A stretch of DNA of 64,000 nucleotides from Bacilli bacterium (GTDB lineage Bacteria > Bacillota_I > Bacilli_A > RFN20 > CAG-826), in assembly GCA_045597865.1 (NCBI GenBank), contig JAZLKX010000046.1:1-64000 (forward strand), in the 5' to 3' direction. Position 1 is the stretch's first letter; each line of letters opens with the position of its first letter. Of this stretch, positions 1-43,378 are shown piece after piece. Both the position numbers and the translations under genes were made by a program. The notes below the pieces were generated by a model. That model did no database searches, was not told the origin of the DNA, and was given only the letters and a program-made list of their open reading frames with translations.

Positions 1-3000
1 AATTTGGATATGTTTTTTTTACTGTAACCTTTTCTACTTTAATCTCATCATTTTCTAAATATTGTTGTTCTTTTTGTATTTCTACATAATATACTTCTTC
101 GTCTGTTAATGTACGTAGTTTACCCTCGCCACTAGCGGTATTACTACTAGAAGATTTCTTTTCTTGTTTAGAATCATCGTAGGTATTAGTAGCTTCTTCT
201 TGAACAACTTCAGGAACTTCGATTTTAATACCTGCTTTTCTAAACTCTTCGGCAAATTTATTTAAATCGGTAACAGTTTTACAGGCATCTCTAAAGCAAG
301 TTCCAAACTCTAGTTTAACAACGTCATAGTCTCTAAATTCATCTATCCAACTAATAAATTCTTCGATAGTTTTTACTTGTTCATCTTTAACTGCTTGTTC
401 TATACTTTGGTCGTTTGAAACTCTACCCATAAGTTCTTCAAGAGATTTAATCAAAGCATTTTTATCTTGAAGGAAATCTAATCTTATATATTCATCAATA
501 TTTTTAGGTTTAACTATTTCTAGTTGTACTAATCTAAAAATTTTGCTCATTATATTTAATTCTGCTTTAAGGTCTTCGTCTTGGTAACCATCAAATTCAC
601 TATGAAGTTTATCACCTATACGTTCACTATCTACAAAATCTTTATAGAACTTACTATTTTGAGTTAGATAACTTATAAAATTTACAAAATCCAAATGATC
701 ATCGCCAAAAAAATCTTTTTCTATTCTACTTGGGGTATCTACTTCTTCATGGAAAAGATTTATTAAATCTAAAATACTTTCTTGACTTTCTACAATTTTT
801 CTTACATCTTCGTATCTTCTTAGTTTAGCTTGTTCAATCTCTGCATCTATAATATCTTTTCTAGTGTTGTAATAAGCATCACTATCAGTCATATATTTGT
901 TTAGATAGAAGCTAAAAGCATTGATACCATCTGTAAGTTTACAAAGGTCAGCAAATAGTTTTAGATAATCATTTTTTTGGTCTTTTGGTAAATAAGTATT
1001 AAGCATTCCAAATACTTCACCTGCTAGTTGTGGATTAAGAGTAAAAGCACCCAATAGTCTTTGTAATACACCTTTGGTAGGTTTTGTTAAAGACTCAACA
1101 CTATTAATACTCTTTAATCTTTCTTGTTCTTCTTTCTCTTGATCTATTAAATCTTTAAGCGTTTTGAACTTATCAGAAATTTCTTTATTAATAGATAGTA
1201 ATTTTTTGATTTTAGATTGTTTGCTTGTAAGATTCTCTAGTTTCTCTTTTTCTCTTTTAATCTTATAGTTGTTTTTGTTATATTGTAAACCTTCGCTTTC
1301 TTTTTCTAAAGCTTCAATTTTACTATTTAGATTACTTATCGCTTTGTCAACTTCATCTGAACTCAAACTAAGATTTTTAACTATATCATTTGTTGTATCT
1401 TCGTTTTGATAAGCTAATTCATCTTGAAGAGTTTTTATAGATTCTCTTATATTTTGAAGTTCAGGACTATTTAAATCATCTGTTTTAAACAATAAGTTAT
1501 CACTAACTAATTTATCAAAATCAGCATCTTCTTTATCATAAGCATTAACAAATCTTAGAGTATTAAAAACATCTAAGTAAGCTTTATAATAGTTAAGAGC
1601 AGCCTTTTGTTTATCTGTTGGATTTTCAACATTTTGTAAAGCTATAACTTTTTTTGCAAGCTCAGAAGCAATCTTATCGAAAGCAGGAGATAGTTGAGAG
1701 AATACTTCACCTTGACGAAGTTCGTGGTCTTTTTGTTGACAAGCAAGCATAGAAAGGTGCGCAACAGCATCGTCATCTAGTCTGCCTTGCGATAATGAAT
1801 AAATCTTATCAGAAACATTAGAATACAAATCTATTGAATCGATTATTTGTTTTTTCTTACGTTCTAGTTCTTTTTTTATTTCTTCTCTAGACATTATTTG
1901 TCCATCTTTAACGTATGGTCCAACAAATTTCTCGATAGGATTACCTTCGGCAGTCCATTCTTGCATTGTTTCTGTTGTTTCTTTTAGAATGTCATCAATA
2001 TTTTCGTCGGTTGTAATACCAGCATTTTCTACCAATGCTTTCATCATATCGGTTCTTCCGTTACGGTGCATAATAGAAATTGCTTCGTACAAGTCTTTTT
2101 GTTTTGCATTTTCAAATTCAAAATGGTCGTTCATTTGCAATGCTTGTTGCATAGTTTCACCATTTTTAATTCGATTTGCTGTTGCTTTGATATACTTCTT
2201 ATATTCGGGATTAGAAGCATAATTAACCATAAAGTCTATTGCTTTTTGGTTTGCCTCTCCCATTTGTCTATGTTCTCTCATAGTATCAAGAGCAGAGCTT
2301 CTCCAATTCTTAAGTTTGAATGGATTGCCGTGTGCCATAGGTAAGAAGCCTGTCATTGCTCCTGCTAGAAATTCTTGGTAGTTATCTAGGTTTAAATAGG
2401 TGTTTTTAAGTGTTGCCAAACCTGTATGGAAAAACTCTTGTAGCGCAGATCTTCCGTTTTTAGAAATATAATTACATTCGCTATCCCAAATATCAGGATT
2501 ATAGAAAGCCTGAGAGCCTGAACTAATAGCATTTTGTAATAGTTCTTCATTTCCTTCCATTAGGTTGTTCCACATAGCAGCTCTAAAACCACTCCAATTA
2601 CCTTTGGTGTTTCTTAGAGCATAAATATCATCACCTATATTTATAGTAGTATATTTTTTTAATTGTTTAGCTAAATCATTTTTTTCTTTTTTGAATAGGT
2701 TTGTTACTTTATCAACAGCCTTATTATACCAAACACGTTGTTTAGATGCGTCCATTATGCCATCGGCAATATTAGACATAGCAGATTTTGCTGTGTTTTG
2801 CATAGCTTTTTCTGCTCCTGTATCGGCTAGTTGTTTAGCACCACCTTTAACGACCTCACCAACAATACCATTACCACTAGATTTAATCATATTAGTAAAA
2901 GGTCTTGCCATATATTTACCAAATGTACCAAAGTTTACAGGTCCAACGGTAAGAATATTTAGTCCGTAAGTCATATTACCTACGTTGTTTGCTAGGTGTT

Positions 3001-4288
3001 TTATTTTATTTTGTTGTCCTAAATGTGTTTTTTCTGCTTGTTTTAGTCGGTATGCACGTTCTTCTTCGGAGATATTAGCTTGTTGAATAAGTGCTAATTC
3101 TTTTTGGTATCTAGCATCTTCTTCTTTACCATATTTCTCCAAATATTCTTTAGCAGCAGTACGTGCTTCCATACCACTTTCTTGAAGAGTTCCAGCCATA
3201 TTGATTACGTGAGACATAGCTTTACCATGAGGATTTACATAGCCTTTAAATCCTTTCTCAACTAATCCTTCGGCAGTTTTAATCTCTTGTCCTAGGATAT
3301 TTCGCATAGCTTTACCACTATCTTGGATAGCATTGCCGACAAGTTTTTTTGAAGTAGGTTTGCTAAACATTTGCATTACTTTGGCTGCCTTGCCAAATTT
3401 GCCAAGTTTAGAACCAGCACTAATAAGCCAACCAACAGTACCACCACCTGTTGCAACAAGACCTGCTGTTCCTAACATAGTACCCATAGTAAAGCCGAGG
3501 GTTTTCATATTGTCTGAAACCATAGACATATTAGTTAGGAAATTCCAATCCTCGTACCATTTTTTATTTTGTTGAGAGTATGATTGGTAGTTTTTGGTAG
3601 CTCTATCTAAGTCGTCTTGCAAGCCTTCCATAAATTTATTATAGTCGTTATTCCACATTCGTTGAGCAACAGCATCTGAGAAATTTTCTCCACCTACTGT
3701 ATCTATAATTGCTCTAACAAATTGTACAGGAGCAACGAAACCTTCTACAAAAGTATCTGCTGCTGTAAGTGTAGCTTGTCCTAGTAATCCTGTAACTCCA
3801 TTAAAAAATCTACGTGCTGTACCTTGATTTTCGTGTCGTTTATTAATAAGTTCAGGAATGCTAGGATTAAACATAAAATTAGCATCATAATCAGTAGTTG
3901 TAAACATATCATACAACTCTGGATTTTCTTCTCTAGATACTTTTCTAGGAGCGTCAAATGAAGAAACACCTGTATTAAATGTACCATCAAGAATAGATAC
4001 TATATTATTAAAATTAGGCAAAAATCCTTTTGGAGTTTTATATTCTTCTAATGGTTGATTGGCATTTTTTAAGTTGTCAGGTATTGCTTGTTCTGCATTA
4101 TCTAACAATCTTTGGCGTATATTATTTTTTTGCCATTCTTCGTCAACTAGTGGAGCTTGTTTAGGTTGTTCTGTATTAACATAACTCCAATCTAGTTTTA
4201 TATCTTCGCTATTATCACTTGGTTTTGTAGGGTACAAATCTTCGTTTCGTACACCTTTACTATCTATGTTTTTAAAATTTATTCCCAT
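1..4288 (-). CDS. Large virion cargo/ejection protein (>1429 aa, runs off the left edge)
   Basis: ATG at 4288 (MGINFKNIDSKGVR). The same frame is open at the window start. It is missing from the ORF track, as expected for an ORF with no stop in the window. Third gene of the cargo cluster. Confidence 0.75.
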   Translation of the reverse strand, partial: MGINFKNIDSKGVRNEDLYPTKPSDNSEDIKLDWSYVNTEQPKQAPLVDEEWQKNNIRQRLLDNAEQAIPDNLKNANQPLEEYKTPKGFLPNFNNIVSILDGTFNTGVSSFDAPRKVSREENPELYDMFTTTDYDANFMFNPSIPELINKRHENQGTARRFFNGVTGLLGQATLTAADTFVEGFVAPVQFVRAIIDTVGGENFSDAVAQRMWNNDYNKFMEGLQDDLDRATKNYQSYSQQNKKWYEDWNFLTNMSMVSDNMKTLGFTMGTMLGTAGLVATGGGTVGWLISAGSKLGKFGKAAKVMQMFSKPTSKKLVGNAIQDSGKAMRNILGQEIKTAEGLVEKGFKGYVNPHGKAMSHVINMAGTLQESGMEARTAAKEYLEKYGKEEDARYQKELALIQQANISEEERAYRLKQAEKTHLGQQNKIKHLANNVGNMTYGLNILTVGPVNFGTFGKYMARPFTNMIKSSGNGIVGEVVKGGAKQLADTGAEKAMQNTAKSAMSNIADGIMDASKQRVWYNKAVDKVTNLFKKEKNDLAKQLKKYTTINIGDDIYALRNTKGNWSGFRAAMWNNLMEGNEELLQNAISSGSQAFYNPDIWDSECNYISKNGRSALQEFFHTGLATLKNTYLNLDNYQEFLAGAMTGFLPMAHGNPFKLKNWRSSALDTMREHRQMGEANQKAIDFMVNYASNPEYKKYIKATANRIKNGETMQQALQMNDHFEFENAKQKDLYEAISIMHRNGRTDMMKALVENAGITTDENIDDILKETTETMQEWTAEGNPIEKFVGPYVKDGQIMSREEIKKELERKKKQIIDSIDLYSNVSDKIYSLSQGRLDDDAVAHLSMLACQQKDHELRQGEVFSQLSPAFDKIASELAKKVIALQNVENPTDKQKAALNYYKAYLDVFNTLRFVNAYDKEDADFDKLVSDNLLFKTDDLNSPELQNIRESIKTLQDELAYQNEDTTNDIVKNLSLSSDEVDKAISNLNSKIEALEKESEGLQYNKNNYKIKREKEKLENLTSKQSKIKKLLSINKEISDKFKTLKDLIDQEKEEQERLKSINSVESLTKPTKGVLQRLLGAFTLNPQLAGEVFGMLNTYLPKDQKNDYLKLFADLCKLTDGINAFSFYLNKYMTDSDAYYNTRKDIIDAEIEQAKLRRYEDVRKIVESQESILDLINLFHEEVDTPSRIEKDFFGDDHLDFVNFISYLTQNSKFYKDFVDSERIGDKLHSEFDGYQDEDLKAELNIMSKIFRLVQLEIVKPKNIDEYIRLDFLQDKNALIKSLEELMGRVSNDQSIEQAVKDEQVKTIEEFISWIDEFRDYDVVKLEFGTCFRDACKTVTDLNKFAEEFRKAGIKIEVPEVVQEEATNTYDDSKQEKKSSSSNTASGEGKLRTLTDEEVYYVEIQKEQQYLENDEIKVEKVTVKKTYPN

Positions 4289-4292
4289 AATA

Positions 4293-6299
4293 TTATTGTG
4301 AATTATTTGTAAATTGCATTGGTTGGTTATCGTCGTGTGTGGTTTTCTTTAACCCAAATTTTCTTTCTGCTATTTGTAACATATCTTGTTCTAGCTCATG
4401 TTTCATTATGTTTAATGTTTCTTCATTAACTTGTATTGGATTTAAATTTTTATCAACAACATAATAATAACCATCATCAGCAGGTCCTTCAGTTAAACCT
4501 TTGTAAAATTCTTGTATTTGGTATATTTTCTTTTTATCGGCATAATCATCTATATTTTCAGCAGGAATTACAATACAATGGTCTTTGCCAAAATATAATC
4601 CAATAGCTGCATCTTTAGTAAAGACTGCTATTTTCATATTTCCATAATTTAGATTATCTAAATCTACTTCTTTTGAAAGTTTATCTGATCGTAAACTAAA
4701 ATCTTCGGCTCTACCATTATACATATAAATACCATCTTGTAGTTCAAATTTACCATCTTTAAGTTCAGCTTTACTTATAGAACCTATCGCTTGTTTTACA
4801 GATTTTTCATCAATACCTGTAAAATTATGTTGAACATCTATGTAAGGTACATATTCTACATAAAGGTCTTTAGTAGCATTTTTAAATTCATCTTTTGATA
4901 ATGATTTACCAACTAAATGTCCTATTTTTTCGTAAACATCTTTAAATTTTTCATTAGCTTCATTGTGTATTTTTTGTAATTCACCAATTTGTTGTGCAGG
5001 TACATCGTAACTTACTTGTTTACCATTGATTGTAAAGATTAATTTATTATCTTCAAAATCAATATTAGTTACAGGGTAATCTTTTAAGAAATAATCAGCA
5101 TCAAAATTTCTCCCACTTTTTGAATTAATAGGTAATCCTGTTAATCCATATTCTACCATATCTAAAGTATCTGATGAAAATACTTTTACGCCAAGTTTAT
5201 CAGAGTTTGCATCTAAGAAATTAAATAAATTATCTTTTAATACATTTTTTATAATATAGTTATTTTCTGCTTCTTTTTTACTTAATACTTTACCTTTGTT
5301 ATTAATTATATTATTATAATTTTTTTCTAAATCATTATTGTTTGTATTATAAAGTTCTAGTTTACCATCGAACATATCAGTTGTTTTCTTATTACCATTA
5401 CCACTTCTATCATTATATGGTTTAAATGAAGTATTGTCAGTAGAAGTTGTTATATAATGACGATCTATACCATCCCAAATTCCACTTATAATAGCATCAT
5501 CGAATAATCTTTGTTGCTCAGGAGAGAAATCATCTAGTTTAAATTCACGTTTAAGGTCTTGCATACTTTCGTATAAAGCTCCAAAATATTCTTTATCTTC
5601 ATCGTTTGCTCCTTCACCTCTGCGAAGTTTATCTAGCATAGCCTCTAAGTTAGTGTTAGTAAACTTTTCACCTTTAATATCATACGAACCTCCTTTTGTA
5701 CCTGAACGTACTCCTTTTTGCCCCATTTCTTCTACAAGATTATATATTTGCTTACTCCATGAATGAGATTTACCTGTTCTATTAACAAGATTAGTCATCA
5801 TAGCTTTAGCAGCGTCATGTAATTTTGAAGTAGATAATTCTCTTGTATCTCTAATATCAGGATTAAAGAATATCTCATCAAGAGAATATGTATTTAGTCT
5901 TCTTCCTACTTTCTGCAACTGTGCATCTTTGTCAAAACGTGCATCTTCTTCATCTCTTCTTTTTACAAAGTCTTCGTATTTTGCTTTAAGAGGTGCAATA
6001 TCACTAGCATAATCACGAGCTAGTGCTGCTATTTGTCTATTTACATTAGGATTAAAACCATTCTTAGCAATATAACCAGCAAGGTTTTCTGCGTTAATAG
6101 CATAACTTTCTATTAACTCTTTTGTTTTAGGAGAAAGATTAGGGTCTAAAGTATTTAATAGTTCCCTAGCAGATGCACCTGTCATAAGAGCATCTGCAAA
6201 TGCTTTATCGGTCTTTTCTCCGTATTCTTTAATAAAATCTACGTTATCTTCTATTGGTTTGTAATCTACAAAACTAAAATCTGTTGCATTAATAGCCAT
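4293..6299 (-). CDS. Putative virion cargo protein, 668 aa
   Basis: Long ORF between cargo protein 1 and the giant ORF; crAss-like synteny. Confidence 0.6.
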   Translation of the reverse strand: MAINATDFSFVDYKPIEDNVDFIKEYGEKTDKAFADALMTGASARELLNTLDPNLSPKTKELIESYAINAENLAGYIAKNGFNPNVNRQIAALARDYASDIAPLKAKYEDFVKRRDEEDARFDKDAQLQKVGRRLNTYSLDEIFFNPDIRDTRELSTSKLHDAAKAMMTNLVNRTGKSHSWSKQIYNLVEEMGQKGVRSGTKGGSYDIKGEKFTNTNLEAMLDKLRRGEGANDEDKEYFGALYESMQDLKREFKLDDFSPEQQRLFDDAIISGIWDGIDRHYITTSTDNTSFKPYNDRSGNGNKKTTDMFDGKLELYNTNNNDLEKNYNNIINNKGKVLSKKEAENNYIIKNVLKDNLFNFLDANSDKLGVKVFSSDTLDMVEYGLTGLPINSKSGRNFDADYFLKDYPVTNIDFEDNKLIFTINGKQVSYDVPAQQIGELQKIHNEANEKFKDVYEKIGHLVGKSLSKDEFKNATKDLYVEYVPYIDVQHNFTGIDEKSVKQAIGSISKAELKDGKFELQDGIYMYNGRAEDFSLRSDKLSKEVDLDNLNYGNMKIAVFTKDAAIGLYFGKDHCIVIPAENIDDYADKKKIYQIQEFYKGLTEGPADDGYYYVVDKNLNPIQVNEETLNIMKHELEQDMLQIAERKFGLKKTTHDDNQPMQFTNNSQ

Positions 6300-6310
6300 A
6301 TTGTTTTATT

Positions 6311-9283
6311 TTATATTTTTCTATTTTTGTAATCTTCTTGGAATTTTGTTAGTTTTTCACTATCAGAAAGTCCTTCTAACTCTTCTTTATTATCTTCTAA
6401 CCAAGATAGGTATTGTCCCATAGTAGCATCATCTGCACGACGACGATAGCTTTGGTTAGATAATTGTGGATAGAAGTATTGTGATGCAAAGTAGTAATCG
6501 TTGTCAAGATTGTTAGTACCATACATTGTATTGTACATTGCATCTTTTCTACGATTTTGTAATGTCTTAGAATAATTTTGTAATTGTTTTGCAAAATTAG
6601 CCCAAGCATTATTTTGCAGTGTTTCGTTAGAATCCATTTCTGCTTGTCTAGCTACACTAGCAGTATTAATAGCATTGTATTTAGCCCATCTATTATTATT
6701 GGCTAACTGATAATCATTAGCTCTATGTTGTTCCAGAGCTTCATTTTGTTGTGCATTAAATTGTGCTATTGCATTACGTTGCTGTTCGTTTTGTTGGTAG
6801 ATTTGATTCATCGCATTAGCACGATCGGTCGCAATTCTACCAAGATTAGCAGCAACATTAGCAGCAACTTGACTTCTATCTCCTGCAAATGCCATAGCAT
6901 TCAAATTTGATAATAAATCATTTTGAAGCTGAGCATTATAAAGATTGCTGTTTTGAGGAACATACTTTTGATATGTAGGTGTAAAACTATTCTGATAGTC
7001 AGGAATAGTCATAGCGTATCGTTCAGGCTTTTCAGCTTGCTCGAAATTAGGTTTACGTAGCAATGCTTTCATAAATTGCATAGCACCCATACCAAAGTTT
7101 GTATTATCAAGAGTTTCGGAAATACTCTTATTTCTACGCCATTTGTCAGCTATATCTTCTATTTCATTTCCTATCTTGTAACGTGCTTGATTTAAAGCAT
7201 TATATTCTTTAAATCCTGATAGGTTGTCATTTAAAAATTTTGTTTTTTCTGCATTGTCAAGTGAAGACCAAGCTCTATTTTTATAAGTATTTAATTGAGT
7301 TTGTAAATCTTTTTTATCTTTACTATCTTCATTAGAATTACTATATACGTGATTATTTACAAAAGAGTTAAATAAAGAACCGTCTCTATCGAAAATAGTA
7401 GAATATAAGTCAGGATTATATTCGTTACCTAAGAAAACACCTTGAAGACCTTGTCGTCCTCTGTCGTTATATTGTTTTATTCTATTTTGTTCTATTATAC
7501 TTTGACGATTTTTAATCCAATCAAGAACTCCACCTTTGTCATATTGATTAGCTTCTTGGTAATTGTTTTGCATACCATTATTGGCTTTTATTTCTTCCTG
7601 AGATTTGCGCAAATTACCCAAGACATTATCTATATATCTTTTAGTAATAGAGTCTCTTAAATCTTTATTTTTCTTTTTAAGATTTTCTACTACATTAGCA
7701 AATGTTTCTCCTTTTAGTTTATATCTTTTTTTTATCTCTTCTGGTACCTCAATTCTATTGGAGAAAACAAATTCTTGTCCATTTGTATCTGTCCATATTT
7801 GTTCTCCTTGTTCGACAAGGTTTTGTTTACCTTGATTGTCTTTCCCATAAGGAACTCCACCCAAAGGATTTTCTTCGTGTGTACCGCCCGTTTTTATAGA
7901 TACAACATCGTTTATATCAGTTCCTTTAGAAGTATATCCACCATTAGCAAAATAATTCATATCTTTTCTTTTTAGTCCTATTATATTACCACCATAAGAA
8001 GCCATATTAGCCATACTCCTTAGGTTAGTTAATTGGTTTCTTTGGTTTGCTACATTCAATGCGTTAGAGTGCATTGCAGTAGCCTTTCTGTTAGCTTTAT
8101 CTTCTGCTTCTTTAAGTCTAGCTATGCGATTTTTCTCGCCTATATGACCCAACAATGAAGATGCTGAGCCTATTATACCACCTATTAAAGCTCCCCATGG
8201 TCCACCTATATCAAAGCCTTTTTTTGCATAGTTTAAAGTGTCCATATTATATTGAGCAAAACCTTTCCCAAAGTTGGTTTTGTTCATTGCAAGATTGCTA
8301 TACTTATGATTGTCCCAAGCTGAACTTTCTACGTTTGCACCTTGTAAACCACCAGTTCCTTCGTATTTAATACGTTGTCCTAGTTCGTCGGCAGCAAGTT
8401 TGCTTCGTTTCTTTCCAGTGAAAGCTCTTGCTAATGGGTCATCACCTACACCACCTCCAATAGCATCGTTAATCATATCTTCGGTTGACCAAGTAGAATA
8501 ATCTTTTTTAAGATTTTTGTAAAGATCCGTTCCGAAATCAACAACTGTGTTAACTATTCCTTGTACTCTATTCCCGTTTGTTGTCTGAAACCCACCTTTC
8601 CCCACTGATTGACTAGACCAATTACCAACTTTATCCAAGAAACTAGTCTTGTTACCATTAGTAACAGAATTTAACATTCCTTGTTCTGCTTTACCAAAAA
8701 TCTCATTTTGACTAGGTGTATTATAACTAAGATAACCTTTAGGATTACCTTCTAATGGGACATTCTTAAAAGCTTCGTAAGCAACATTATTATTTAATTG
8801 TTTTATATCATCATTAGATAATATTCCATTAGAACCATTATTTATATTATTTAGATTTCCTATGTAATTTCCATCTTTATCATATTGTAGATTCTGATTA
8901 AGATTATCAATATCTACATTAGATAAAATGCCATTAGAAGCATTTTTATAATTAGGTAGATTACCTATATAATTACCATTTTTATCAAAGTGATAGTTTT
9001 GATAATTGTTACCATAAGCAGTACCTAAGAAATTAGCTACGCCATTTTTTGCGCTATCTCTTAGTGCAAACATATTTTGAAAACCATTGTTATCTATAAC
9101 ATTTCTTGGTTTATTATAATTTGCAGCATTTTGTAGAGCAGTTTTAGAACTAGCTCTATTGCCAAAGAACATACCTATATCGGATAGTATATTCCCAGCA
9201 TCTTGTATCATATCTTTATAATCTCTTTGCTTATTGCTTTTACCAAAAAGATTTGCTAAACTACTATAATCAAAACCACTCAT
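6311..9283 (-). CDS. crAss-like cargo protein 1-type ejection protein, 990 aa
   Basis: GGTHEENPLGGV...LVEQGE...FVFSNR motif, Gly-rich hydrophobic helix GGPWGALIGGIIGSASSLLG, Asn/Gln-rich coiled C-terminus. Confidence 0.75.
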   Translation of the reverse strand: MSGFDYSSLANLFGKSNKQRDYKDMIQDAGNILSDIGMFFGNRASSKTALQNAANYNKPRNVIDNNGFQNMFALRDSAKNGVANFLGTAYGNNYQNYHFDKNGNYIGNLPNYKNASNGILSNVDIDNLNQNLQYDKDGNYIGNLNNINNGSNGILSNDDIKQLNNNVAYEAFKNVPLEGNPKGYLSYNTPSQNEIFGKAEQGMLNSVTNGNKTSFLDKVGNWSSQSVGKGGFQTTNGNRVQGIVNTVVDFGTDLYKNLKKDYSTWSTEDMINDAIGGGVGDDPLARAFTGKKRSKLAADELGQRIKYEGTGGLQGANVESSAWDNHKYSNLAMNKTNFGKGFAQYNMDTLNYAKKGFDIGGPWGALIGGIIGSASSLLGHIGEKNRIARLKEAEDKANRKATAMHSNALNVANQRNQLTNLRSMANMASYGGNIIGLKRKDMNYFANGGYTSKGTDINDVVSIKTGGTHEENPLGGVPYGKDNQGKQNLVEQGEQIWTDTNGQEFVFSNRIEVPEEIKKRYKLKGETFANVVENLKKKNKDLRDSITKRYIDNVLGNLRKSQEEIKANNGMQNNYQEANQYDKGGVLDWIKNRQSIIEQNRIKQYNDRGRQGLQGVFLGNEYNPDLYSTIFDRDGSLFNSFVNNHVYSNSNEDSKDKKDLQTQLNTYKNRAWSSLDNAEKTKFLNDNLSGFKEYNALNQARYKIGNEIEDIADKWRRNKSISETLDNTNFGMGAMQFMKALLRKPNFEQAEKPERYAMTIPDYQNSFTPTYQKYVPQNSNLYNAQLQNDLLSNLNAMAFAGDRSQVAANVAANLGRIATDRANAMNQIYQQNEQQRNAIAQFNAQQNEALEQHRANDYQLANNNRWAKYNAINTASVARQAEMDSNETLQNNAWANFAKQLQNYSKTLQNRRKDAMYNTMYGTNNLDNDYYFASQYFYPQLSNQSYRRRADDATMGQYLSWLEDNKEELEGLSDSEKLTKFQEDYKNRKI

Positions 9284-22383: not shown

Positions 22384-23292
22384 TTATTTATTATTGTTTT
22401 TGATTGCTAATTCTAATAAATCTAAAGTTTTTTTATGATTATCTAAGGTAATTTGAATATTTCTTAACATAATAGTATTGTTCTCTAATATCTGATTAGA
22501 AAACTTTAAAATCTCTGTATTATTCTTAATCATTTCTTTTATTATAGAAGGTTGATTAAAAATAATCGAAGGAGAATTTTGTATTCTAGAAACAAGCTCG
22601 TAGAAATCATAAATTTCCTCTTTTTTTCTTGTTATTATCGGATAATTAGTATTAGGAATTGGTAACGATAACATATAATCTCCATCATCTAATAGCGATA
22701 TTCTTTTTATCATTTTCCCATCGTTTACAGTATCAACTAGATATACGCCTTGGTGACGAACTTCATTAAATGATACTTTCTTAATACAAATCCAATCTCC
22801 TTGAAGCAAATAAGGTTCTAGTTCTCTTGAACATATTTGATAAGCAAATGTGCAATTTGGAATAAGACTAGACGGATCTTCTTTCAAAGGTTCGCCTAAA
22901 CAATATTCCTCTAGACTAATATTATTTATGGCATTTAAATCACATTCGATTATTTTGCCTTCTTTACAGCCTATTATGTGTTTTGTATTGCTTTCTGCTT
23001 CGGTTATGTTGTTATTACTACCGATAACGTGATTGTTATTACCATTTACATTTTGATAATTGTTATATCTTGGCAAAAACATTTCGTTATCATTACCTGT
23101 AATATAATTCGGATTTATATTAAATTTTTCCGATAATAACTTCAAGAAAGATTCAGAAATCTTTTCTTTCCCTGTTGTAATACCAACATAATATTGGTAA
23201 GAAAGACCTAAGAAGTCAGCAATTTGCTTCTTTTTAAAGATTCCATATTGCTTACTTGCTTCTAAAATACAATTTTCTAATCGTTTTAACAT
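22384..23292 (-). CDS. CI-like repressor (XRE HTH plus S24-like domain)
   Basis: KKQIADFLG...FNINPNYITG HTH; SRELEPYLLQGD...MIKR resembles a diverged S24 fold. Confidence 0.75.
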   Translation of the reverse strand: MLKRLENCILEASKQYGIFKKKQIADFLGLSYQYYVGITTGKEKISESFLKLLSEKFNINPNYITGNDNEMFLPRYNNYQNVNGNNNHVIGSNNNITEAESNTKHIIGCKEGKIIECDLNAINNISLEEYCLGEPLKEDPSSLIPNCTFAYQICSRELEPYLLQGDWICIKKVSFNEVRHQGVYLVDTVNDGKMIKRISLLDDGDYMLSLPIPNTNYPIITRKKEEIYDFYELVSRIQNSPSIIFNQPSIIKEMIKNNTEILKFSNQILENNTIMLRNIQITLDNHKKTLDLLELAIKNNNK

Positions 23293-23317
23293 TTTGATTT
23301 TTAATTAATTCAAATAA

Positions 23318-23408
23318 AATATTAAGATAAAATAAAAATAATCCTTAATAATATTAAGATATATTAATTATTATAACTACATTTGTAGCGTTTGTGGGTG
23401 CAAATGTA
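23318..23408. promoter_or_regulatory. Opposed promoters and operator (genetic switch)
   Basis: TACATTTG on + (23378-85) and on - (23401-08); palindrome CTTAAT-AAT-ATTAAG at 23344-58. Confidence 0.65.
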
Positions 23409-23448
23409 TATTAAAAATAATTAAAAGCAAATAAAAATTAAGAAAAAA

Positions 23449-23805
23449 ATGAATAATGAGAATAAATATGTAGAAAGACTTATTCAAGAGTGTAATATTT
23501 CTCTTGAAAAGCATAACATATTATATAAAGAAAATCAAATAAAGCTAGATGAGATAATCGACAAAGTTGATAACATTAAAGAATGGATAAATGGTTCAAA
23601 TTTGATAACAAAAGAAGCATTTGCTAATTTGTGTAATGTTAAACCACAAACAATCCATAAGAGATTACTAGAAGGATTGTATGAAACTCCCAAAGGTTAT
23701 ACTGAGAGAGCATATTACAATCAAGGTAATCAAGGAAATCAACTATTCGTTATCCCACTAGCATTAGAATATTACGAAATAAATCTAAATAATGAATGTA
23801 AATAA
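23449..23805 (+). CDS. Xis/Cro-like HTH protein
   Basis: LITKEAFANLCNVKPQTIHKRL wHTH; divergent from the repressor. Confidence 0.6.
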   Translation: MNNENKYVERLIQECNISLEKHNILYKENQIKLDEIIDKVDNIKEWINGSNLITKEAFANLCNVKPQTIHKRLLEGLYETPKGYTERAYYNQGNQGNQLFVIPLALEYYEINLNNECK

Positions 23806-32799: not shown

Positions 32800-34077
32800 T
32801 TAAGGTTCAACAAAATATTCTTTATAATTTGTTAGACTAGCGTCAATCCAAACATTTTTCTTGTTAATTGGATTGGCTAGTTTCAATCCTTCAAGACTTT
32901 TACATCTTGACAAACCAACATAAGTTTGTCCTGGAGCAAAAGCAGCAGGATTTAAGAATACTTTATCAAGGGTTAACCCCTGACTTTTGTGTATTGTAAT
33001 AGCCCAAGCCAACTTTACGGGAATTTGTTTAAAACTCCCTATTGTTTCTTGGACTCTTGCTTTTTTCTTGGTCTTATATTGAATTTTAGACCAAGTTTCG
33101 TAACCTAGATTATAATCCTTTCCATTTTCTGCTTTAATGGTAATAGCATCATCTTCTAGGCTTGTAACTAATCCTATTAATCCATTGTAATAAGACTTCC
33201 CATAAAGATCTTCGCCATTTTTGCATATCATTACTTTGGCATTGACTTTTAAATGGAGTTTCTCATCAGTTGGATATTCAGATTCAAGGAATTTGCCACT
33301 TACTTCTGCTAAATATATCTTTTCCTCAGAGTCCAATTTCTGTAACTCTTTGTCATTGATATATTTAGCCCCTTTAAATGGCATATCCTTGTAAGGGGTT
33401 AGAATGGTATATGAATTATCCCATTCCCTTGATACACGACCATTAAGGATTTCTTGGTCGGTATCTGTTAGTGTTCCATTTCTAATATTATTAAGGATAT
33501 TCACGAATGTTATATCTTTCTGACGATAAACTTCGTCTAATTCTACTATATAACATTCAATTCCTGATAATTTTAAAGCATCTAAAAAATAATAACCACA
33601 CTTAGGATAAATGTCTTCTAAGGCAGCTTTGTCGCTAGAGGTAACGACAGGTGGTAGTTGAAATAAATCTCCAATTAGAAGTAATTGGACACCACCGAAA
33701 GGAAGTTTGTTGCCTTTTATGTCCTGAAGAAACTCATGGACACAGAATAGTACATCTATCCTAGTCATACTTATTTCGTCAATAATTAATAACTCTAAAT
33801 TCTTTAAAGACATGAATGTTTCCGTCATATAAACATTGTAAGACTTTGACGGATTATAAACTTCTCTTGGTATTTGGAACGTAGAATGTATGGTTGCACC
33901 ACCACAATTTATGGCAGCAATGCCAGTGGGAGCGCATACATAGTAGATTACTCCTAAATCATTTAATTTTTCTTTTAATTGATTCAGTAAATAAGTTTTA
34001 CCTGTTCCTGCTTTTCCTGTGAGAAATAAATTCTTTTTCTTTAAAATTAAATCAAATGCTAATTCTTGCTTTGTCAT
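32800..34077 (-). CDS. PIF1/RecD-like SF1B helicase
   Basis: GKAGTGKT, APTGIAA, IIDEISM, GDLFQLPPV, AITIHKSQG, YVGLSR. Confidence 0.95.
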   Translation of the reverse strand: MTKQELAFDLILKKKNLFLTGKAGTGKTYLLNQLKEKLNDLGVIYYVCAPTGIAAINCGGATIHSTFQIPREVYNPSKSYNVYMTETFMSLKNLELLIIDEISMTRIDVLFCVHEFLQDIKGNKLPFGGVQLLLIGDLFQLPPVVTSSDKAALEDIYPKCGYYFLDALKLSGIECYIVELDEVYRQKDITFVNILNNIRNGTLTDTDQEILNGRVSREWDNSYTILTPYKDMPFKGAKYINDKELQKLDSEEKIYLAEVSGKFLESEYPTDEKLHLKVNAKVMICKNGEDLYGKSYYNGLIGLVTSLEDDAITIKAENGKDYNLGYETWSKIQYKTKKKARVQETIGSFKQIPVKLAWAITIHKSQGLTLDKVFLNPAAFAPGQTYVGLSRCKSLEGLKLANPINKKNVWIDASLTNYKEYFVEP

Positions 34078-35087
34078 CTCTTCTTTCTAAAATCTACATT
34101 ATCTTCAATTACATAGTAATTGAGTTCACAGATGCGAGAGAAAAATCTTTCACCATATCTTTCTCTAATCTCGTCCATAGACAAGTTAGTTGTGATGATG
34201 GTATAGAACTTTCCTTCTGAGCGATATTGAATAATATCCTCAATCGCCTGTGAATGATGCTTATATTTATTCGTTTTGGTCTCAGCACCTAGATCATCAA
34301 TAAATAGTATTGGAACATTCTTTAATCTATTAATAAAACTACCTTTATCTTTAAAGTCATCTTCATAGTCAGCATTAACTATGTCGATTGCGGTAGTATT
34401 GTCGTTCCAATGAAAATTCCACAATTTCCCTAAAAACTCAAATGGTATAATTGGTTTTGTAGAGTAATGCTGTTGGTAAGTTAGGCTATTGACAGCCTTT
34501 ATAAGAGAAGTCTTACCTACTCCACAATTTCCATACACTAATATTCCCTTGTTTAGATTACCTACTACTTTAGATTTATCAGTAGGGTCAAGAGATAGGA
34601 AGGTGTATGTTTTATCACCAATAGTTTTTGAAGAGCAATAAAAAAACCACAAGATTAGATTATGTATAAAAAATTTCGTAGTTGGACCTAAGTCCTTGAA
34701 AGAAATTTCTTTTCCATAATTATTTTTATAAAATCGGTTAATTGAATTTAAAACTTTTTCGTAGTTAAATTCTGTCTCCGATCTGTAAAAATCTTTATAG
34801 TTTTTATTCGTAGTTAAATTTAATTTTTCAAAATAACCTACTCTATCTGTGCCTTTTAATGCAAGATAGTCATTCATAGGATTATTCTGAAAGCAAAATT
34901 GCATCTCGAATAATGCTCTTTCTTTCGGAGTCAATTTCTTTTTATAATCCTCTTTTAACCTATCAAATTCTAGGTTATAGAGTCTTATATATTCATCTTT
35001 ATTCGTAGATGAATTAAAATGCTCCGCAATTTTTTTTCGTTTTTGGAAATCGTTTTGGGCATCTAAATTTATTTTTTTGATTTCCAT
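34074..35087 (-). CDS. DnaC/IstB-like AAA+ ATPase (helicase loader)
   Basis: GNCGVGKT, LFIDDLGAE, TIITTNL...YGERFFSR. Confidence 0.85.
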   Translation of the reverse strand: MEIKKINLDAQNDFQKRKKIAEHFNSSTNKDEYIRLYNLEFDRLKEDYKKKLTPKERALFEMQFCFQNNPMNDYLALKGTDRVGYFEKLNLTTNKNYKDFYRSETEFNYEKVLNSINRFYKNNYGKEISFKDLGPTTKFFIHNLILWFFYCSSKTIGDKTYTFLSLDPTDKSKVVGNLNKGILVYGNCGVGKTSLIKAVNSLTYQQHYSTKPIIPFEFLGKLWNFHWNDNTTAIDIVNADYEDDFKDKGSFINRLKNVPILFIDDLGAETKTNKYKHHSQAIEDIIQYRSEGKFYTIITTNLSMDEIRERYGERFFSRICELNYYVIEDNVDFRKKR

Positions 35088-35105
35088 TTATAAATAAATT
35101 TTCAA

Positions 35106-35138
35106 TAAAAAGCTACGAACAATAGTTATTCGTAGCTA
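35106..35138 (-). terminator. Intrinsic terminator ending the ncRNA-rich leader
   Basis: AGCTACGAA-N9-TTCGTAGCT-TTTT on the - strand. Confidence 0.75.
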
Positions 35139-35335
35139 AAATAAGTCCTTGAATAAAAACAAGCTCTGTCTGCTAACAGATTTAATCACCAGCATTAGGT
35201 GAACTTGTGGGACTATAAAATCTAAGACCACTATCTTACAGTGGGAGATTTCTCTCTTTTTTATTCGCCTCTCACAATCATATATACTTTCCACCTGCAA
35301 TGCCAGTACTCGTAGTGAGGTTCTATTATGATTGA

Positions 35336-35521
35336 TTATTTCCCCATCAATCGAGGGTCGATAGGGTTATTTCTATAAGTGAAATAACCGTAGTCATACC
35401 ATGTTTTTTCTTGGTATGACCATTCCTCTCTATAATGCTCCATTGGAACATTCAAAGAGGAATTATCATTATCTCTCTTGGCATCTTCCCAGCCAAGAGA
35501 GAACAATTCCCATGATAACAT
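35336..35521 (-). CDS. 61-aa hypothetical protein
   Basis: ATG 35521 after an A/T-rich leader; MLSWELFSLGWEDA...WYDYGY. Confidence 0.55.
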   Translation of the reverse strand: MLSWELFSLGWEDAKRDNDNSSLNVPMEHYREEWSYQEKTWYDYGYFTYRNNPIDPRLMGK

Positions 35522-35708
35522 ATTAATTTTGAATTTCAGCTTTATTGACAATATTGTCTTACCACCAGCTGTAGGTTTGCTCAATTTCGGTAGAAGAGAC
35601 TTTATCTACCTAGAAAAACCAACACTATTTCTTAGTGGTTGCTACTATTCTTCACAACAAATGGTAAATCTTACTACAACATTTGTAGTTGTAGTCTTTT
35701 AATCCAAG

Positions 35709-35771
35709 TGCCATAATCAAGAATCGAACTTGATTATCCTGCTTATTACAGGATAGTTACCAAACTATGGC
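35709..35771 (-). ncRNA. tRNA-like RNA lacking a D stem
   Basis: GCCATAG/TTATGGC acceptor, TATCCTG-TAATAAG-CAGGATA arm, TCAAG-TTCGATT-CTTGA T arm. Confidence 0.65.
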
Positions 35772-36043
35772 GTGTCAATTTTGGTTTTTTATGTAGGCAG
35801 ATTTGAAACTGCTCTAACCAATGTATTTCCCCCATTGGCGTGGGTTTTGATGATTAGTACATGAAGTACCAAGTCATCATAAATAAAAAAGGAATAGTTC
35901 TAAACATATCCTTAATGTTTTAATACAGTCATTAACTTGACCCTGACTGCTTGGGTCATTTATAAATTGATTTGTTTTTTTATGTAGGCAGTTTACTCTG
36001 CACTAGATTTAATTATCCCAGTTTTCTCTGGTTAACTACCGAA

Positions 36044-36178
36044 TTATCGTCTTGCTCTTTTGATGAAACAAAGACAATCTTCATAAGAAGTGTATCTTCT
36101 TACTTGGATATTGTCCTCGTAAACAACAAATGAGTAGCCGTCAAACTCGATAGTAAATCTACCGTGTTGTTCGCTCAT
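36044..36178 (-). CDS. 44-aa micro-ORF
   Basis: MSEQHGRFTIEFDGYSFVVYEDNIQVRRYTSYEDCLCFIKRARR after an A-rich leader. Confidence 0.5.
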   Translation of the reverse strand: MSEQHGRFTIEFDGYSFVVYEDNIQVRRYTSYEDCLCFIKRARR

Positions 36179-36348
36179 TTTTTAGCTTTTTAACACGTTA
36201 CTGCCACTAATTTAATTCTATCATCTCTCTAGCAGTGAAAGAGATTTAGAATACCTATTTCTGTTGCCAACTCTATTTCCAAAGGCTTTCTTGGAGAGTC
36301 CGCTTCTACTCGGTTACTATAATTCACCTTTCGACATTGCATTAATCC

Positions 36349-36438
36349 TTATAGGAAAGGAAATACAATGATGACAGCATTTACGATGTAGTACACCGCT
36401 GCTGCTGTCATGCAGCCATAAAGAAGTTTTTCAAACAT
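36349..36438 (-). CDS. 29-aa hydrophobic peptide
   Basis: MFEKLLYGCMTAAAVYYIVNAVIIVFPFL. Confidence 0.5.
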   Translation of the reverse strand: MFEKLLYGCMTAAAVYYIVNAVIIVFPFL

Positions 36439-36516
36439 CTTTATTATTTTTAAAATTTCGATAGCATCTAAAACGTGAACTTATCGCACGAAAAAACTCA
36501 GCTATCACTAGTTTTT

Positions 36517-36577
36517 TTATCCCATCTGCATTTATAGAGGCTTTGGACTCTCACCATAAGGTGGCTGCATTAGATAT
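36517..36577 (-). ncRNA. Twister ribozyme (type P1)
   Basis: AUAUCU^AAUGCAGC-CACC/GGUG-AGAGUCCAAAGCCUCU-AUAAA-UGCAGAUGGGAUA: P2 UGCA/UGCA, T2 GC/GC, T1 UCCA/UGGG, matching the twister consensus as I recall it. Confidence 0.88.
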
Positions 36578-36600
36578 GTTTATTAAACACAAATGTACAG
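36577..36600 (-). promoter_or_regulatory. Leftward promoter with an operator over the start site
   Basis: TACATTTG at 36590-97; TGTTTATTAAACAC at 36577-90. Confidence 0.7.
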
Positions 36601-36664
36601 ATTTTTGTAGAACTACAAAAGTTTTGGTAAGAAATTTGTAGTTATTTCGTAATCTGATATTAAT

Positions 36665-37015
36665 GTGAATGAAAAAATGGAAAAAATATATTTCAAACAG
36701 TGGTATAGTGAACAATTTTATGAGCAATGCCTAAATATAATAGGTTATTTCCCACTGTTGCAATTAACGTTATTATATCGTAAAAACCCACAAATTGAAA
36801 TAATTAATAATATACTATATTTTAAAATCAATGAAGATGATTTATTAGAGCATATATACTATACAAATAGTATTGAAAATGGTAATTGCATTAAAATCAA
36901 TAACAATATTTATTTAAAGATTAATGAAACCTTTTTAATAAATCCTTGTGACGTAGTTTTTGTGTTAAAAAAGACAAAAAAAGGCATAGTTTTGGATTAT
37001 ATTATTCGTAGCTAA
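36665..37015 (+). CDS. Hypothetical protein, isolated on the + strand
   Basis: 116-aa ORF. Confidence 0.5.
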   Translation: MNEKMEKIYFKQWYSEQFYEQCLNIIGYFPLLQLTLLYRKNPQIEIINNILYFKINEDDLLEHIYYTNSIENGNCIKINNNIYLKINETFLINPCDVVFVLKKTKKGIVLDYIIRS

Positions 37016-37078
37016 TTCTTAATCTTTAAATAAAAAATCATCAATTATTTATACTCGCTGATGATGACGAGTCGCTGA

Positions 37079-37459
37079 TTATTTAGATAAACTTTTCAAA
37101 AGTTTTTCGTCTATATCAGCAATTACTTTGTTACCAACACAGAATTTAATTGTCTTGTCTTCTGAGTCTTTGTTTTTTTGGCAAACAATAAAAGAAACTA
37201 GATTTCTTTTTATGTCTTTTAGTTTGCTTGCCTTGTTTGTTGGCATAAAGGTTGCCAACAAATGTTTATCGTCTACATTTTTGACAGGAAGAAATATTTC
37301 CTCCTCCAACACGTTTTCGACTTCTTTTGAAATTAGTGCTCTAATAATTGAGCAACTAAATTTTTCATTAGTTTTTGAGTTTACACCTGAAAAAGGTATA
37401 ATCTCAAAATCTTTAATAAAAGATGTAACGTCTTGACAATATGCTTTACTTGTTATCAT
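37079..37459 (-). CDS. First leftward gene, possible crAss-type ssDNA-binding protein
   Basis: Position next to the divergence point and size; sequence similarity weak. Confidence 0.45.
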   Translation of the reverse strand: MITSKAYCQDVTSFIKDFEIIPFSGVNSKTNEKFSCSIIRALISKEVENVLEEEIFLPVKNVDDKHLLATFMPTNKASKLKDIKRNLVSFIVCQKNKDSEDKTIKFCVGNKVIADIDEKLLKSLSK

Positions 37460-37499
37460 AATAATAAAATTTTGAAGTTTATAATTAAGTTTTATGCTT

Positions 37500-38630
37500 T
37501 TTATTTAACATTGCAAGCATACACAATCAACCTACGAGGGTTACCCCTGTCAGTCAAAAATAAGCCCCCACTTCGTTAATTATTCTCCGCTCATATTTTT
37601 TCAAAAAAAAATTAAAAAGACTTTTTTGAATCCAATAATTTCGGATTAATTAATAGATGAAAAATTTTTCTAAAAAAAATTGAAAAAAAATTTTTAAAAA
37701 AAATAGATATAGACAAAGATTAAAAAATGAGATTTAAGACCATTTTTCTTCGGTTTAAGAAACTTTAATATCAAAGATGATAAAGTCATTGATTTTTTAA
37801 AAATAATGTCTTAGAATTAAAATTTTAAAATTTAATAAAAATAAACTTTGAAGAATAAAACCAAGGAAAGATTTAAAAATCGAAAATTGAGTTTAAAAAA
37901 ATGAAAATGGTTTTAGAAATGATTTAAATGGAATTAACAGGATTTTTAAAGATTGAAAAAATTAATAAAGATTTTAGTTAGTGATTAATAGACACAACAT
38001 ATCGAATTTAGCCATTTTTAAACGATTTAAGAGATTTTAATTTGGAAGTTGAACAATTTATCGACTTTTGAAAAATAATGGCTTAAAACGAAGATTTTGA
38101 AGGTTGATTAAAAATTGAGATTGAGGAAAGAGATTTGAAGTTGGAGTTGAAGGATTTTATTTGGACCTCGAAAAAAAATTTTGGGTTGGGGTTTAAAAGT
38201 TCTTTGATTACTTTCTTACAAGAAAGTAATGCCACGCGGCGAGCGGTTTCTCTTTTTCTTTTTTCTGTTTCTTTGCTTTTTTCTTTTTTTATTTTCTTTT
38301 TTCTTTTCTTTTTTCTTTTATCTTTTTTCTCTCTTTACTTCTTTTTCTTTTATGTTACTTTTCTTTTTCTTCGTTTCTCTCTTTTTTCGTTTTTCTTTTT
38401 TCTTTTCTTTTTTCTTTGTTTTTTTTCTTTTTTCATTTCTTTATCTTTTTTCTTTTTCTCTTTATGAGCTTGTCTAAAGTTAGGATATAGTTTACAAAAC
38501 CTTGTTATAGACCTTGTATTGATAGGTATATACTTTACTTTCTGTTAGGTGTATAAAATACACTTAATGAATAAATAAATTGTTAATTGCATAAAAACAA
38601 GGATTTTTTACATTAGAAAAAAAGTTTAAT
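37500..38630. other. Non-coding divergence region between the two arms
   Basis: Gene orientation switches here; extremely AT-rich; contains a polypyrimidine tract. Confidence 0.65.
38246..38464 (+). repeat. Polypyrimidine low-complexity tract
   Basis: ~220 nt that is almost only T and C. Confidence 0.85.
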
Positions 38631-39182: not shown

Positions 39183-39252
39183 TGCGGGGTAGTGTAATGG
39201 TTGCACGTTAGGCTCATAACCTAGAAGTCCTGTTCGATTCAGGCGACCGCTA
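39183..39252 (+). tRNA. tRNA-Met (CAU), initiator-like, imperfect acceptor stem
   Basis: TTAGG-CTCATAA-CCTAG arm, CCTG-TTCGATT-CAGG, 1:72 mismatch. Confidence 0.7.
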
Positions 39253-40349: not shown

Positions 40350-40421
40350 AGAACCTTAGTTTTAAATGGATAGAACAGCTCCCTAAAGGAGAAGATAAGA
40401 GTTCAAGTCTCTTAGGTTCAC
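40350..40421 (+). tRNA. tRNA-like gene with a contracted anticodon loop
   Basis: GAACCT/AGGTTC acceptor, D arm, AAGAG-TTCAAGT-CTCTT T arm; anticodon arm CTCC-CTAAA-GGAG. Confidence 0.6.
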
Positions 40422-43221: not shown

Positions 43222-43308
43222 AGCCTTGTAGTTTAACTGGTAGAACGCTGTATTGCAATAGATAGGGATTGCTTTATGGTAGTGCAGGTTCAAATCCTGT
43301 CAAGGTTG
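43222..43308 (+). tRNA. tRNA-like gene with 15 extra nt in the anticodon loop
   Basis: AGCCTTG/CAAGGTT, GTTT/GAAC D stem, GCAGG-TTCAAAT-CCTGT; 22-nt loop. Confidence 0.65.
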
Positions 43309-43378
43309 CAAAGTACCAAACTGAAAAATTGCAGTTTGGCTGAACATTAGAATATTAATATTAATAAAAAAACATAAT

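Follow-up and report, generated by a model that had tools for sequence, protein, structure and literature searches.

A type-P1 twister ribozyme beside a promoter-like site on a phage contig, a candidate device for setting the 5′ end of an early transcript

The DNA analysed here, referred to as the window, comprises the first 64 kb (64,000 nucleotides, nt) of the 91,795-nt gut-phage contig JAZLKX010000046.1, which has a G+C content of 31%. On its minus strand, at positions 36576..36518, the window almost certainly carries a real self-cleaving ribozyme of the twister class (type P1), located directly behind a promoter-like site of the Bacteroidota type. We lean towards the view that self-cleavage close to this promoter would set the mature 5′ end of a leftward early phage RNA.

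A cmscan search matched the Rfam model RF03160 (twister-P1) over positions 1-68 of 68, with a score of 57.4 bits and an E-value of 2.8e-10 for both strands of the 64-kb window (2.2e-12 in a search of 501 nt). The first-pass annotation, which had described a complete twister core behind a promoter and proposed a search with this model, is thus borne out, with a score that lies under the Rfam gathering score of 67.2 bits. The match surfaces under E-value reporting, and at gathering scores the window gives five tRNA-type matches only. The shortfall is explained by a short P3 (4 bp, loop UUAU) and by compensated changes from the consensus in P4 and the pseudoknot T1. The essential stems P1, P2 and P4 are all present, and the termini of the RNA lie in P1. 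No pair in the model alignment was flagged as non-standard, and the core letters UAA, GCC, GUCC-AAGCC, UAAA and GA-GG all match the consensus.

The window ribozyme pairs UAUC with GAUA in P1, UGCA with UGCA in P2, CACC with GGUG in P3 and AGA with UCU in P4 (loop GUCCAAAGCC), and its pseudoknots join CCA with UGG (T1) and GC with GC (T2). Stems P1-P4 were recovered in the minimum-energy fold of the isolated ribozyme RNA. An alignment of 23 distinct sequences, consisting of the window and 22 phage twisters of the same sub-variant with identical copies removed, was scored for covariation against the twister structure with both pseudoknots included. Standard pairs occupied 97.6% of the pair cells, including all of the window's own pairs; controls with slid partners were paired in 23-44%. 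Cells with double changes numbered 81, against 24.5 in shuffles, and none of 500 shuffles reached that count. The share of paired cells was 100% for T2 and 98.6% for T1, and P1, P2 and P3 covary across the 23 sequences; P4 and part of L4 were fixed by the search pattern and are uninformative in this respect. At T1, where the consensus joins GUCCCAAGCC to GAGGG, all 23 sequences carry GUCCAAAGCC with GAUGG (GAUAG in one of them), and the third pair is A-U in 23 of 23 instead of the consensus C-G. The CCC/GGG of the consensus is accordingly replaced by CCA/UGG in the window, a compensated change. The 3′ partner of T1 lies outside the search pattern, but the expression used to find the end of the element demanded GAU[AG]G, which matched in 45 of 45 loci. 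Every predicted stem and both predicted pseudoknots of the window twister are backed by this comparison with 22 relatives.

Moreover, the conserved letters of L1 and L4, the G-C and U.A extensions of P4 and the GC of L2 in the window fit the twister scheme as described in the review PMC5408937, in which the L2 GC serves T2, T1 comprises three Watson-Crick pairs and P4 is extended by a G-C and a U.A. Judged by its sequence, the ribozyme looks catalytically competent. A chance match or a decaying relic without function, to which a score below the gathering cut-off might point, is extremely unlikely in view of the E-value of 2.8e-10, of stems and pseudoknots kept intact with compensatory changes relative to 22 sequences, and of a block retained at ~87-89% identity in two relatives whose flanks have diverged.

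The J1-2 UAA of the RF03160 alignment places the cut between U36572 and A36571, the identical bond proposed in the first-pass annotation, in keeping with the U-A cleavage site adjoining P1 described for twisters (PMC5408937). The upstream cleavage product would end in a 2′,3′-cyclic phosphate, and the downstream product would open with a 5′-OH at A36571. The ribozyme also stands alone, as had been noted: there was no second twister-model match in the whole 1.74-Mb assembly, and the 91.8-kb contig yielded no other Rfam ribozyme (at E ≤ 1 in the window, E ≤ 5 in 35000-36520 and E ≤ 0.5 in the remaining 27.8 kb).

The -7 element of Bacteroidota promoters is described as having the consensus TAHHTTTG, spanning -12 to -5 with no G at -10/-9, and lying 4-5 nt from the transcription start (PMC6847099). 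The box TACATTTG upstream of the twister fits this consensus, carries a G at -5 as in its revised form, and is preceded by a TTTG -33 element (Table 1). With the 4-5 nt spacing rule, transcription would start at 36585/36584, with P1 lying 8-9 nt and the cut 13-14 nt beyond this start. Occurrences of the full -33/-7 motif, in which TTTG precedes the box by 17-23 nt, number 22 on the contig compared with 8.35 in shuffles (2.6-fold), and ~9 of the 22 occurrences are in intergenic DNA facing a gene. TAHHTTTG boxes in intergenic DNA numbered 31 (36 listed less five inside the open-ended first gene); 16 of these 31 precede a co-oriented gene by no more than 200 nt, and nine lie 16-34 nt before an ATG. 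No other TAnnTTTG box was present on the minus strand between 36597 and 32516, which makes TACATTTG the sole canonical promoter candidate for the downstream helicase loader and helicase genes. A scan for sigma-70-type promoters was set aside as uninformative for a Bacteroidota-type phage. Judging from these motifs, 36619..36590 is probably a real promoter. Of the promoter claimed in the first-pass annotation, the -7 box just before the twister is present; promoter activity itself is deduced from the motif.

Twister cleavage leaves a 5′-hydroxyl on the downstream product, and if transcription starts at 36585/36584 the 5′-triphosphate would be swapped for a 5′-OH through this chemistry. We set out the following course of events as a proposal, in which the start site, cleavage in vivo, read-through to the replication genes and an effect on stability are what we infer. 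Host RNA polymerase would start at ~36585/36584 from TTTG-N18-TACATTTG; after ~70 nt, the RNA would fold into the double-pseudoknot twister and cut itself between U36572 and A36571. The 13-14-nt triphosphorylated stub, ending in a 2′,3′-cyclic phosphate, would be discarded, and the mature RNA would begin with a 5′-hydroxyl A kept inside the compact ribozyme fold. This RNA would span 1.45 kb of small open reading frames (ORFs) and then continue past the hairpin at 35137-35111, probably into the loader and helicase genes. The likely benefit would be a defined, structured and non-phosphorylated 5′ end, shielding the RNA from 5′-end-dependent decay and insulating it from promoter-proximal sequence. 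That stabilisation is the benefit under selection we suggest only tentatively, as a possibility somewhat short of probable.

The distribution of the sub-variant provides a different perspective. A blastn search of 35000-38000 against phage records matched the ribozyme alone, in the crAss-like phages cr7_1 and cr124_1, where the twister site is unannotated and intergenic and scores 52.6 bits in each against RF03160; the E-values for the window, cr7_1 and cr124_1 span 1e-9 to 1e-12. The 18-nt P4/L4 core of the window was found in 45 IMG/VR loci and in four GTDB contigs, one of the latter being a chance match without a ribozyme and another a duplicate of an IMG/VR contig. The sub-variant, with loop GUCCAAAGCC and the 3′ strand GAUGG, is represented by the 45 IMG/VR loci, the two crAss-like genomes and three further contigs from metagenome-assembled genomes (MAGs). 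A BLAST search of 34000-38500 against all retrieved loci again matched the ribozyme alone. Ribozyme patterns with the P1 and P2 of the window, sought in JGI metagenomes and GTDB genomes, led to no close relative of the phage. When DNA of 401 genomes from the same order as the MAG was searched, only short chance-level matches and one twister-like match emerged.

The 47 non-window loci were grouped by upstream flank into 21 clusters, with one representative each. A hairpin ends within 6 nt of P1 in 20 of the 21 representatives and has at least 5 bp in 18 of them, with ~14 different hairpin sequences; the 60-nt upstream flanks fold at -6.5 to -20.2 kcal/mol in the relatives versus -3.8 kcal/mol in the window. 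An ORF of at least 40 aa begins 25-65 nt after the ribozyme in 15 of the 21 clusters, the neighbouring genes encode unrelated small proteins, several of them membrane-like, and TAnnTTTG was found within 60 nt upstream of the twister in none of the 21. This succession of hairpin, twister and gene indicates that the usual role of the sub-variant is to cut between genes, with the hairpin capping the upstream fragment. The window differs from its relatives in the presence of the -7 box and in having only a formal 5-bp AU/GU hairpin abutting P1, and its promoter-side placement is atypical for the sub-variant.

These relatives raise the possibility that the window twister likewise processes read-through RNA. 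In that case it would cut RNA from the promoter at 37562, passing via 37459..37079 and antisense to 36677-37015, so as to uncouple the leftward genes from upstream RNA, and the promoter likeness would be incidental. The processing of long phage transcripts is a published proposal (PMC3088659; PMC6765202), the hairpin and twister occur without a -7 box in 20 of 21 clusters with an ORF 25-65 nt downstream in 15 of them, the twister of cr7_1 and cr124_1 lies between co-oriented genes, and the window itself has two weak hairpins upstream. Nevertheless, 506 nt separate the ribozyme from the end of the closest co-oriented gene upstream, and a coding-like ORF occupies the opposite strand in this interval; the upstream hairpins are far weaker than those of the relatives; an RNA extended by the upstream 15 nt is predicted to mispair with the 3′ half of the ribozyme; and the full -33/-7 motif is positioned precisely so that RNA started from it would fold cleanly. 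On balance, we regard read-through processing as possible and rather unlikely.

Conservation of the surrounding DNA, assessed with contigs from four DNA sequencing runs, delimits the unit. The DNA contigs of one related phage keep 32500-35089 at ~92% identity, only short islands up to 36199, and then 36199-36674 at ~89% (41 differences and 11 gaps in 476 nt). A second relative keeps 36224-36337 and 36509-36657 (~87%; 18 differences and 2 gaps in 149 nt), and in both the flanks of the conserved blocks drop below 80% identity. A conserved block thus comprises the ribozyme together with the 80-100 nt that precede it, and its boundary coincides with the beginning of the opposite-strand ORF. Searches with the loader protein detected no close relatives in IMG/VR or JGI metagenomes.

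Predicted folding depends on where the RNA begins. For RNA 36585..36510, the minimum-energy state has the secondary structure of the twister, with -14 kcal/mol and 38% of the ensemble; for RNA 36600..36510 (-17.5 kcal/mol), the box region pairs with the 3′ strand of the ribozyme in a 12-bp helix. The comparison includes neither pseudoknot terms nor co-transcriptional kinetics and is given little weight. With that reservation, the folds would fit a start at the box, as well as a role of the strong hairpins of the relatives in keeping upstream RNA off the ribozyme; the weak upstream hairpin of the window would be expected where no upstream RNA needs to be kept apart. The twister might then act as an insulator that marks the origin of the RNA, with RNA from its own promoter being cut and upstream RNA, mispaired between the box and the ribozyme 3′ half, remaining uncut, an idea we consider improbable. 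Taken further, the pairing of box and ribozyme could constitute a regulatory switch, or a switch by origin, that makes cleavage conditional, so that promoter-started RNA is cut and read-through RNA stays intact. The change of the minimum-energy fold with the 5′ end speaks for such a switch, but it is thermodynamic in basis, lacks pseudoknot terms and involves 12 bp with 3 G-U pairs that may be due to chance, the box and the UAAAUG segment of the ribozyme both being AT-rich; we hold it to be slightly more improbable still.

Several points weigh against promoter-proximal cleavage in the window. In each of the 21 related clusters this ribozyme occupies a site between genes that lacks a promoter box, and the window twister scores under the Rfam gathering cut-off. 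A lone TAnnTTTG is common by chance (207 on the contig versus ~160 expected from shuffles), and AT-rich intergenic DNA inflates matches to the -33/-7 motif. The window also has the 5-bp AU/GU hairpin next to P1, and the palindrome that overlaps the promoter-like site would fold if transcribed; read-through from the co-oriented gene 37459..37079 (box at 37562) into the twister is possible, and the hairpin at 35137-35111 may halt the RNA short of the replication genes. The fold comparison leaves out pseudoknots and co-transcriptional kinetics, as stated above.

The first-pass annotation had also suggested that the new 5′-OH could prime RtcB-type ligation, in which case the twister would be one half of an excision or circularisation device whose 5′-OH is joined by the ligase to a downstream 2′,3′-cyclic phosphate. 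A second ribozyme on the same strand does occur within 0.6-2.4 kb in some relatives, namely a RAGATH-1 hammerhead 0.6-1.6 kb upstream in loci L002, L005, L035 and L046 and a hatchet ribozyme 2.4 kb downstream of the twister in L006, and RtcB was detected in Bacteroides thetaiotaomicron as a control of the search. This part of the annotation finds no support here: neither RtcB (on the contig or in the assembly) nor a second Rfam ribozyme (on the 91.8-kb contig) was found. Furthermore, Perreault et al. report having sought spliced or circular products of flanking hammerheads and having found none (PMC3088659), and the 5′ end of the twister 3′ fragment is reported as probably buried and as poorly ligated, at 30% in vitro (PMC8782182). 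Circularisation is therefore very unlikely here.

In cr7_1 (L002 3997-5096, NC_055895.1), a single gene, gp68, annotated as 'lipopolysaccharide assembly protein', is flanked by the twister and by a RAGATH-1 hammerhead (68.6 bits) that is itself unannotated. The twister of cr124_1 was accompanied by no hammerhead match in its 8-kb stretch at E ≤ 0.1. A further arrangement was observed in five IMG/VR loci (L012 1807-2696, minus strand, and alike in L024, L028, L039 and L044), where the twister is preceded at ~75 nt by a tRNA-Arg(ACG) gene, across an intervening hairpin, and followed at ~126 nt by a long match to the transfer-messenger RNA (tmRNA) model RF00023 (78.5 bits, E 1.3e-28). ARAGORN confirmed the tRNA and called no tmRNA. 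This arrangement suggests that the twister processes a tRNA/tmRNA-like co-transcript in these loci.

The window element is not of a new kind, since both ribozyme-defined 5′ ends of early phage RNAs and phage operons punctuated by ribozymes have been in print since 2011. The twister class was described by Roth et al. in 2014, as cited in the review PMC5408937. With RF03160, the window element shares P1-P4, T1 and T2, the U-A cut site by P1, the L1 and L4 letters and a setting among phage genes, which many twisters have; it differs as a sub-variant with a short P3, altered P4 and T1, the loop GUCCAAAGCC and a score of 57.4 bits. The closest precedent for the arrangement appears to be the hammerhead of the haloviruses HF1 and HF2, which precedes a helicase gene opening an early polycistronic transcript (Perreault et al. 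2011, PMC3088659) whose mapped 5′ end falls within 3 nt of the hammerhead cut (PMC3088659). In both cases a self-cleaving ribozyme stands ahead of a helicase gene in an early, replication-related transcript. However, the halovirus element ('HHphage') belongs to the hammerhead class, has an archaeal host and a mapped 5′ end, whereas the 5′ end in the window is deduced from sequence, and ~1.45 kb of small ORFs plus a hairpin separate the window ribozyme from the loader and helicase genes.

Ribozymes that flank prophage genes (PMC3088659; PMC6765202) resemble the window element in occupying an early or accessory region with small, variable neighbours, and this layout is seen among the window's relatives in the series of hammerhead, gp68 and twister of cr7_1; the window differs in having a single ribozyme beside a promoter-like site and not after the hairpin of an upstream gene. 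The roles of bacterial and phage twisters are still called largely speculative in the literature (PMC5408937, PMC6765202). A full-text search of the open-access literature found no paper on twisters together with crAss or Crassvirales phages, or with phage start sites, in this arrangement. The sub-variant thus occurs in two settings. As a rule it follows a hairpin in an intergenic position, and in one case it heads a replication operon, immediately after a promoter-like site. A comparison of the two bears on whether the element serves the RNA upstream of the cut, the RNA downstream of it or the two alike; in the promoter-proximal case the downstream effect, a folded 5′-OH end, stands by itself. 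RiboJ-type insulators are engineered, hammerhead-derived elements placed directly after a promoter and followed by a designed hairpin. Their likeness to the window is functional only: a promoter-proximal cut trims a variable leader and leaves a structured 5′-OH end.

The promoter had further been described as repressible. A perfect palindrome, TTTTGTAG-NN-CTACAAAA, overlaps the promoter-like site and is a candidate operator, or may be a weak RNA hairpin if transcribed. The 16-nt core of the palindrome is matched exactly once within the window, and four times at ≤ 2 mismatches, against 0.88 expected. The 9-mer ATAACTACA of a third half-site, ATAACTACAAA, at 36645..36637, recurs on the plus strand (23373-23381) in the divergent promoter region of a gene for a 302-aa helix-turn-helix (HTH) protein (22384-23292) that adjoins the integrase. 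This protein matches the PHROG phrog_4 'transcriptional repressor' (E 4.8e-08); its score against Pfam HTH_3, 22.3 bits, falls just short of the cut-off of 23. The divergent region 23292-23449 contains two TACATTTG boxes and the palindrome CTACA-TT-TGTAG. The count of ATAACTACA, 3 against 0.99 expected, is equalled in 7 of 100 shuffles and is not significant. No repressor was found beside the promoter itself, as neither the small ORFs nor the two upstream ORFs had a credible match in Pfam or PHROGs. The palindrome, the HTH gene and the shared TACATTTG boxes of the proposed repressible promoter are thus present, and the count of the shared 9-mer gives it no significant backing; control of the twister promoter by this repressor is a lead, not a finding.

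Table 1. Features of the window around the twister ribozyme.
Feature	Position	Strand	Basis or remark
Type-P1 twister self-cleaving ribozyme	36518..36576	minus	RF03160 match, covariation, isolated-RNA fold
Predicted scissile bond U36572/A36571	36571..36572	minus	J1-2 UAA position in model alignment
-7 box TACATTTG, Bacteroidota type, fits TAHHTTTG	36590..36597	minus	sequence, motif statistics
-33 element TTTG, 18 nt upstream of -7 box	36616..36619	minus	full motif 36619..36590
Perfect 8+8 palindrome TTTTGTAG-NN-CTACAAAA	36603..36620	none assigned	~-35 to -18 of inferred promoter
Third half-site ATAACTACAAA	36633..36645	minus	shared 9-mer ATAACTACA
Coding-like gene, own -7 box at 37562	37459..37079	minus	upstream of ribozyme, co-oriented
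Divergent 112-aa ORF, unknown family	36677..37015	plus	codon log-odds +0.19 per codon; other frames -0.5 to -0.9
29-aa hydrophobic ORF, first after ribozyme, coding status uncertain	36349..36438	minus	log-odds -0.01 per codon
37-aa ORF coinciding with DNA island kept in two relatives' contigs	36229..36342	minus	could be protein-coding or an RNA element
44-aa ORF, coding-like codon usage	36044..36178	minus	+0.20 per codon
61-82-aa ORF, coding-like usage, over unusually stable predicted hairpins	35336..35584	minus	codon usage, folding
Terminator-like 12-bp hairpin and T run, 24 nt before loader gene	35111..35137	minus	sequence
DnaC-like helicase loader, first replication gene downstream	34074..35087	minus	phrog_50, E 7.9e-22
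Dda-like helicase	32800..34077	minus	phrog_325, E 2.5e-69

The coding-like usage of the plus-strand ORF upstream of the ribozyme (Table 1) makes the intervening DNA a divergent promoter region and argues for a ribozyme unit with its own promoter. Downstream, the 29-aa ORF begins 79 nt past the ribozyme and the first ORF of at least 40 aa 339 nt away; reading TAG as Q or using table 4 opened no long frame in 35090-36600. The terminator-like hairpin before the loader gene may end a 1.45-kb leader unit or act as an attenuator. In the stretch between ribozyme and loader, stable hairpins are predicted at 35340-35540 and 35640-35890 (z down to -6.4 against mononucleotide shuffles), one hairpin pair in this low-coding 1.4 kb has the 9-bp arm GTCATACCA/TGGTATGAC, and a 24-nt direct repeat lies at 35780/35971. 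Genes left of ~36.5 kb point leftward and those right of it rightward, with the GC skew changing sign at ~37 kb. Together, the hairpins, the direct repeat and the skew switch could mark a replication origin between ribozyme and loader.

The contig encodes a major head protein, an integrase, the HTH repressor-like protein, a DnaD-like protein and an amidase, in addition to the DnaC-like loader, the Dda-like helicase, an Erf-like protein, several Ant-like proteins and tRNAs; its head, integrase, repressor-like and replication genes identify it as a temperate phage. Shine-Dalgarno sites precede 3 of its 42 long ORFs, which equals the background rate, versus 42-73% on the other large contigs of the MAG. 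The lack of such sites is described as typical of Bacteroidota (PMC6847099), and the best protein matches of the contig include Bacteroides and Porphyromonas phages. We accordingly read the contig as mis-binned and as belonging to a Bacteroidota-type host; its low G+C probably led to its placement in this small-genome MAG. The twister also occurs on three other contigs of phage size, which are assigned to Firmicutes, Mollicutes or Erysipelotrichaceae MAGs. The label of crAss-like phage was dropped for the window contig, which PHROGs and tblastn do not place there and whose large proteins have no PHROG or Pfam match.

Very large minus-strand ORFs, of >1429, 668, 990, 1420 and 3163 aa, occupy 2-9283 and contig positions 77782-91549, and gave no PHROG and/or no Pfam match where scanned. 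Between 39184 and 43309, five tRNA-model matches are interleaved with three Ant-like genes; those at 39184-39251 and 40350-40421 were seen by Rfam only, and the one at 43222-43309 has a 17-nt insertion in the anticodon region and a four-base anticodon according to ARAGORN. Finally, the listed plus-strand ORFs in 38135-38477 have negative codon log-odds and the minus-strand frames positive ones, 38244-38466 is flagged as a repeat by aligned DNA contigs, and gene calls across 38135-38477 are doubtful.

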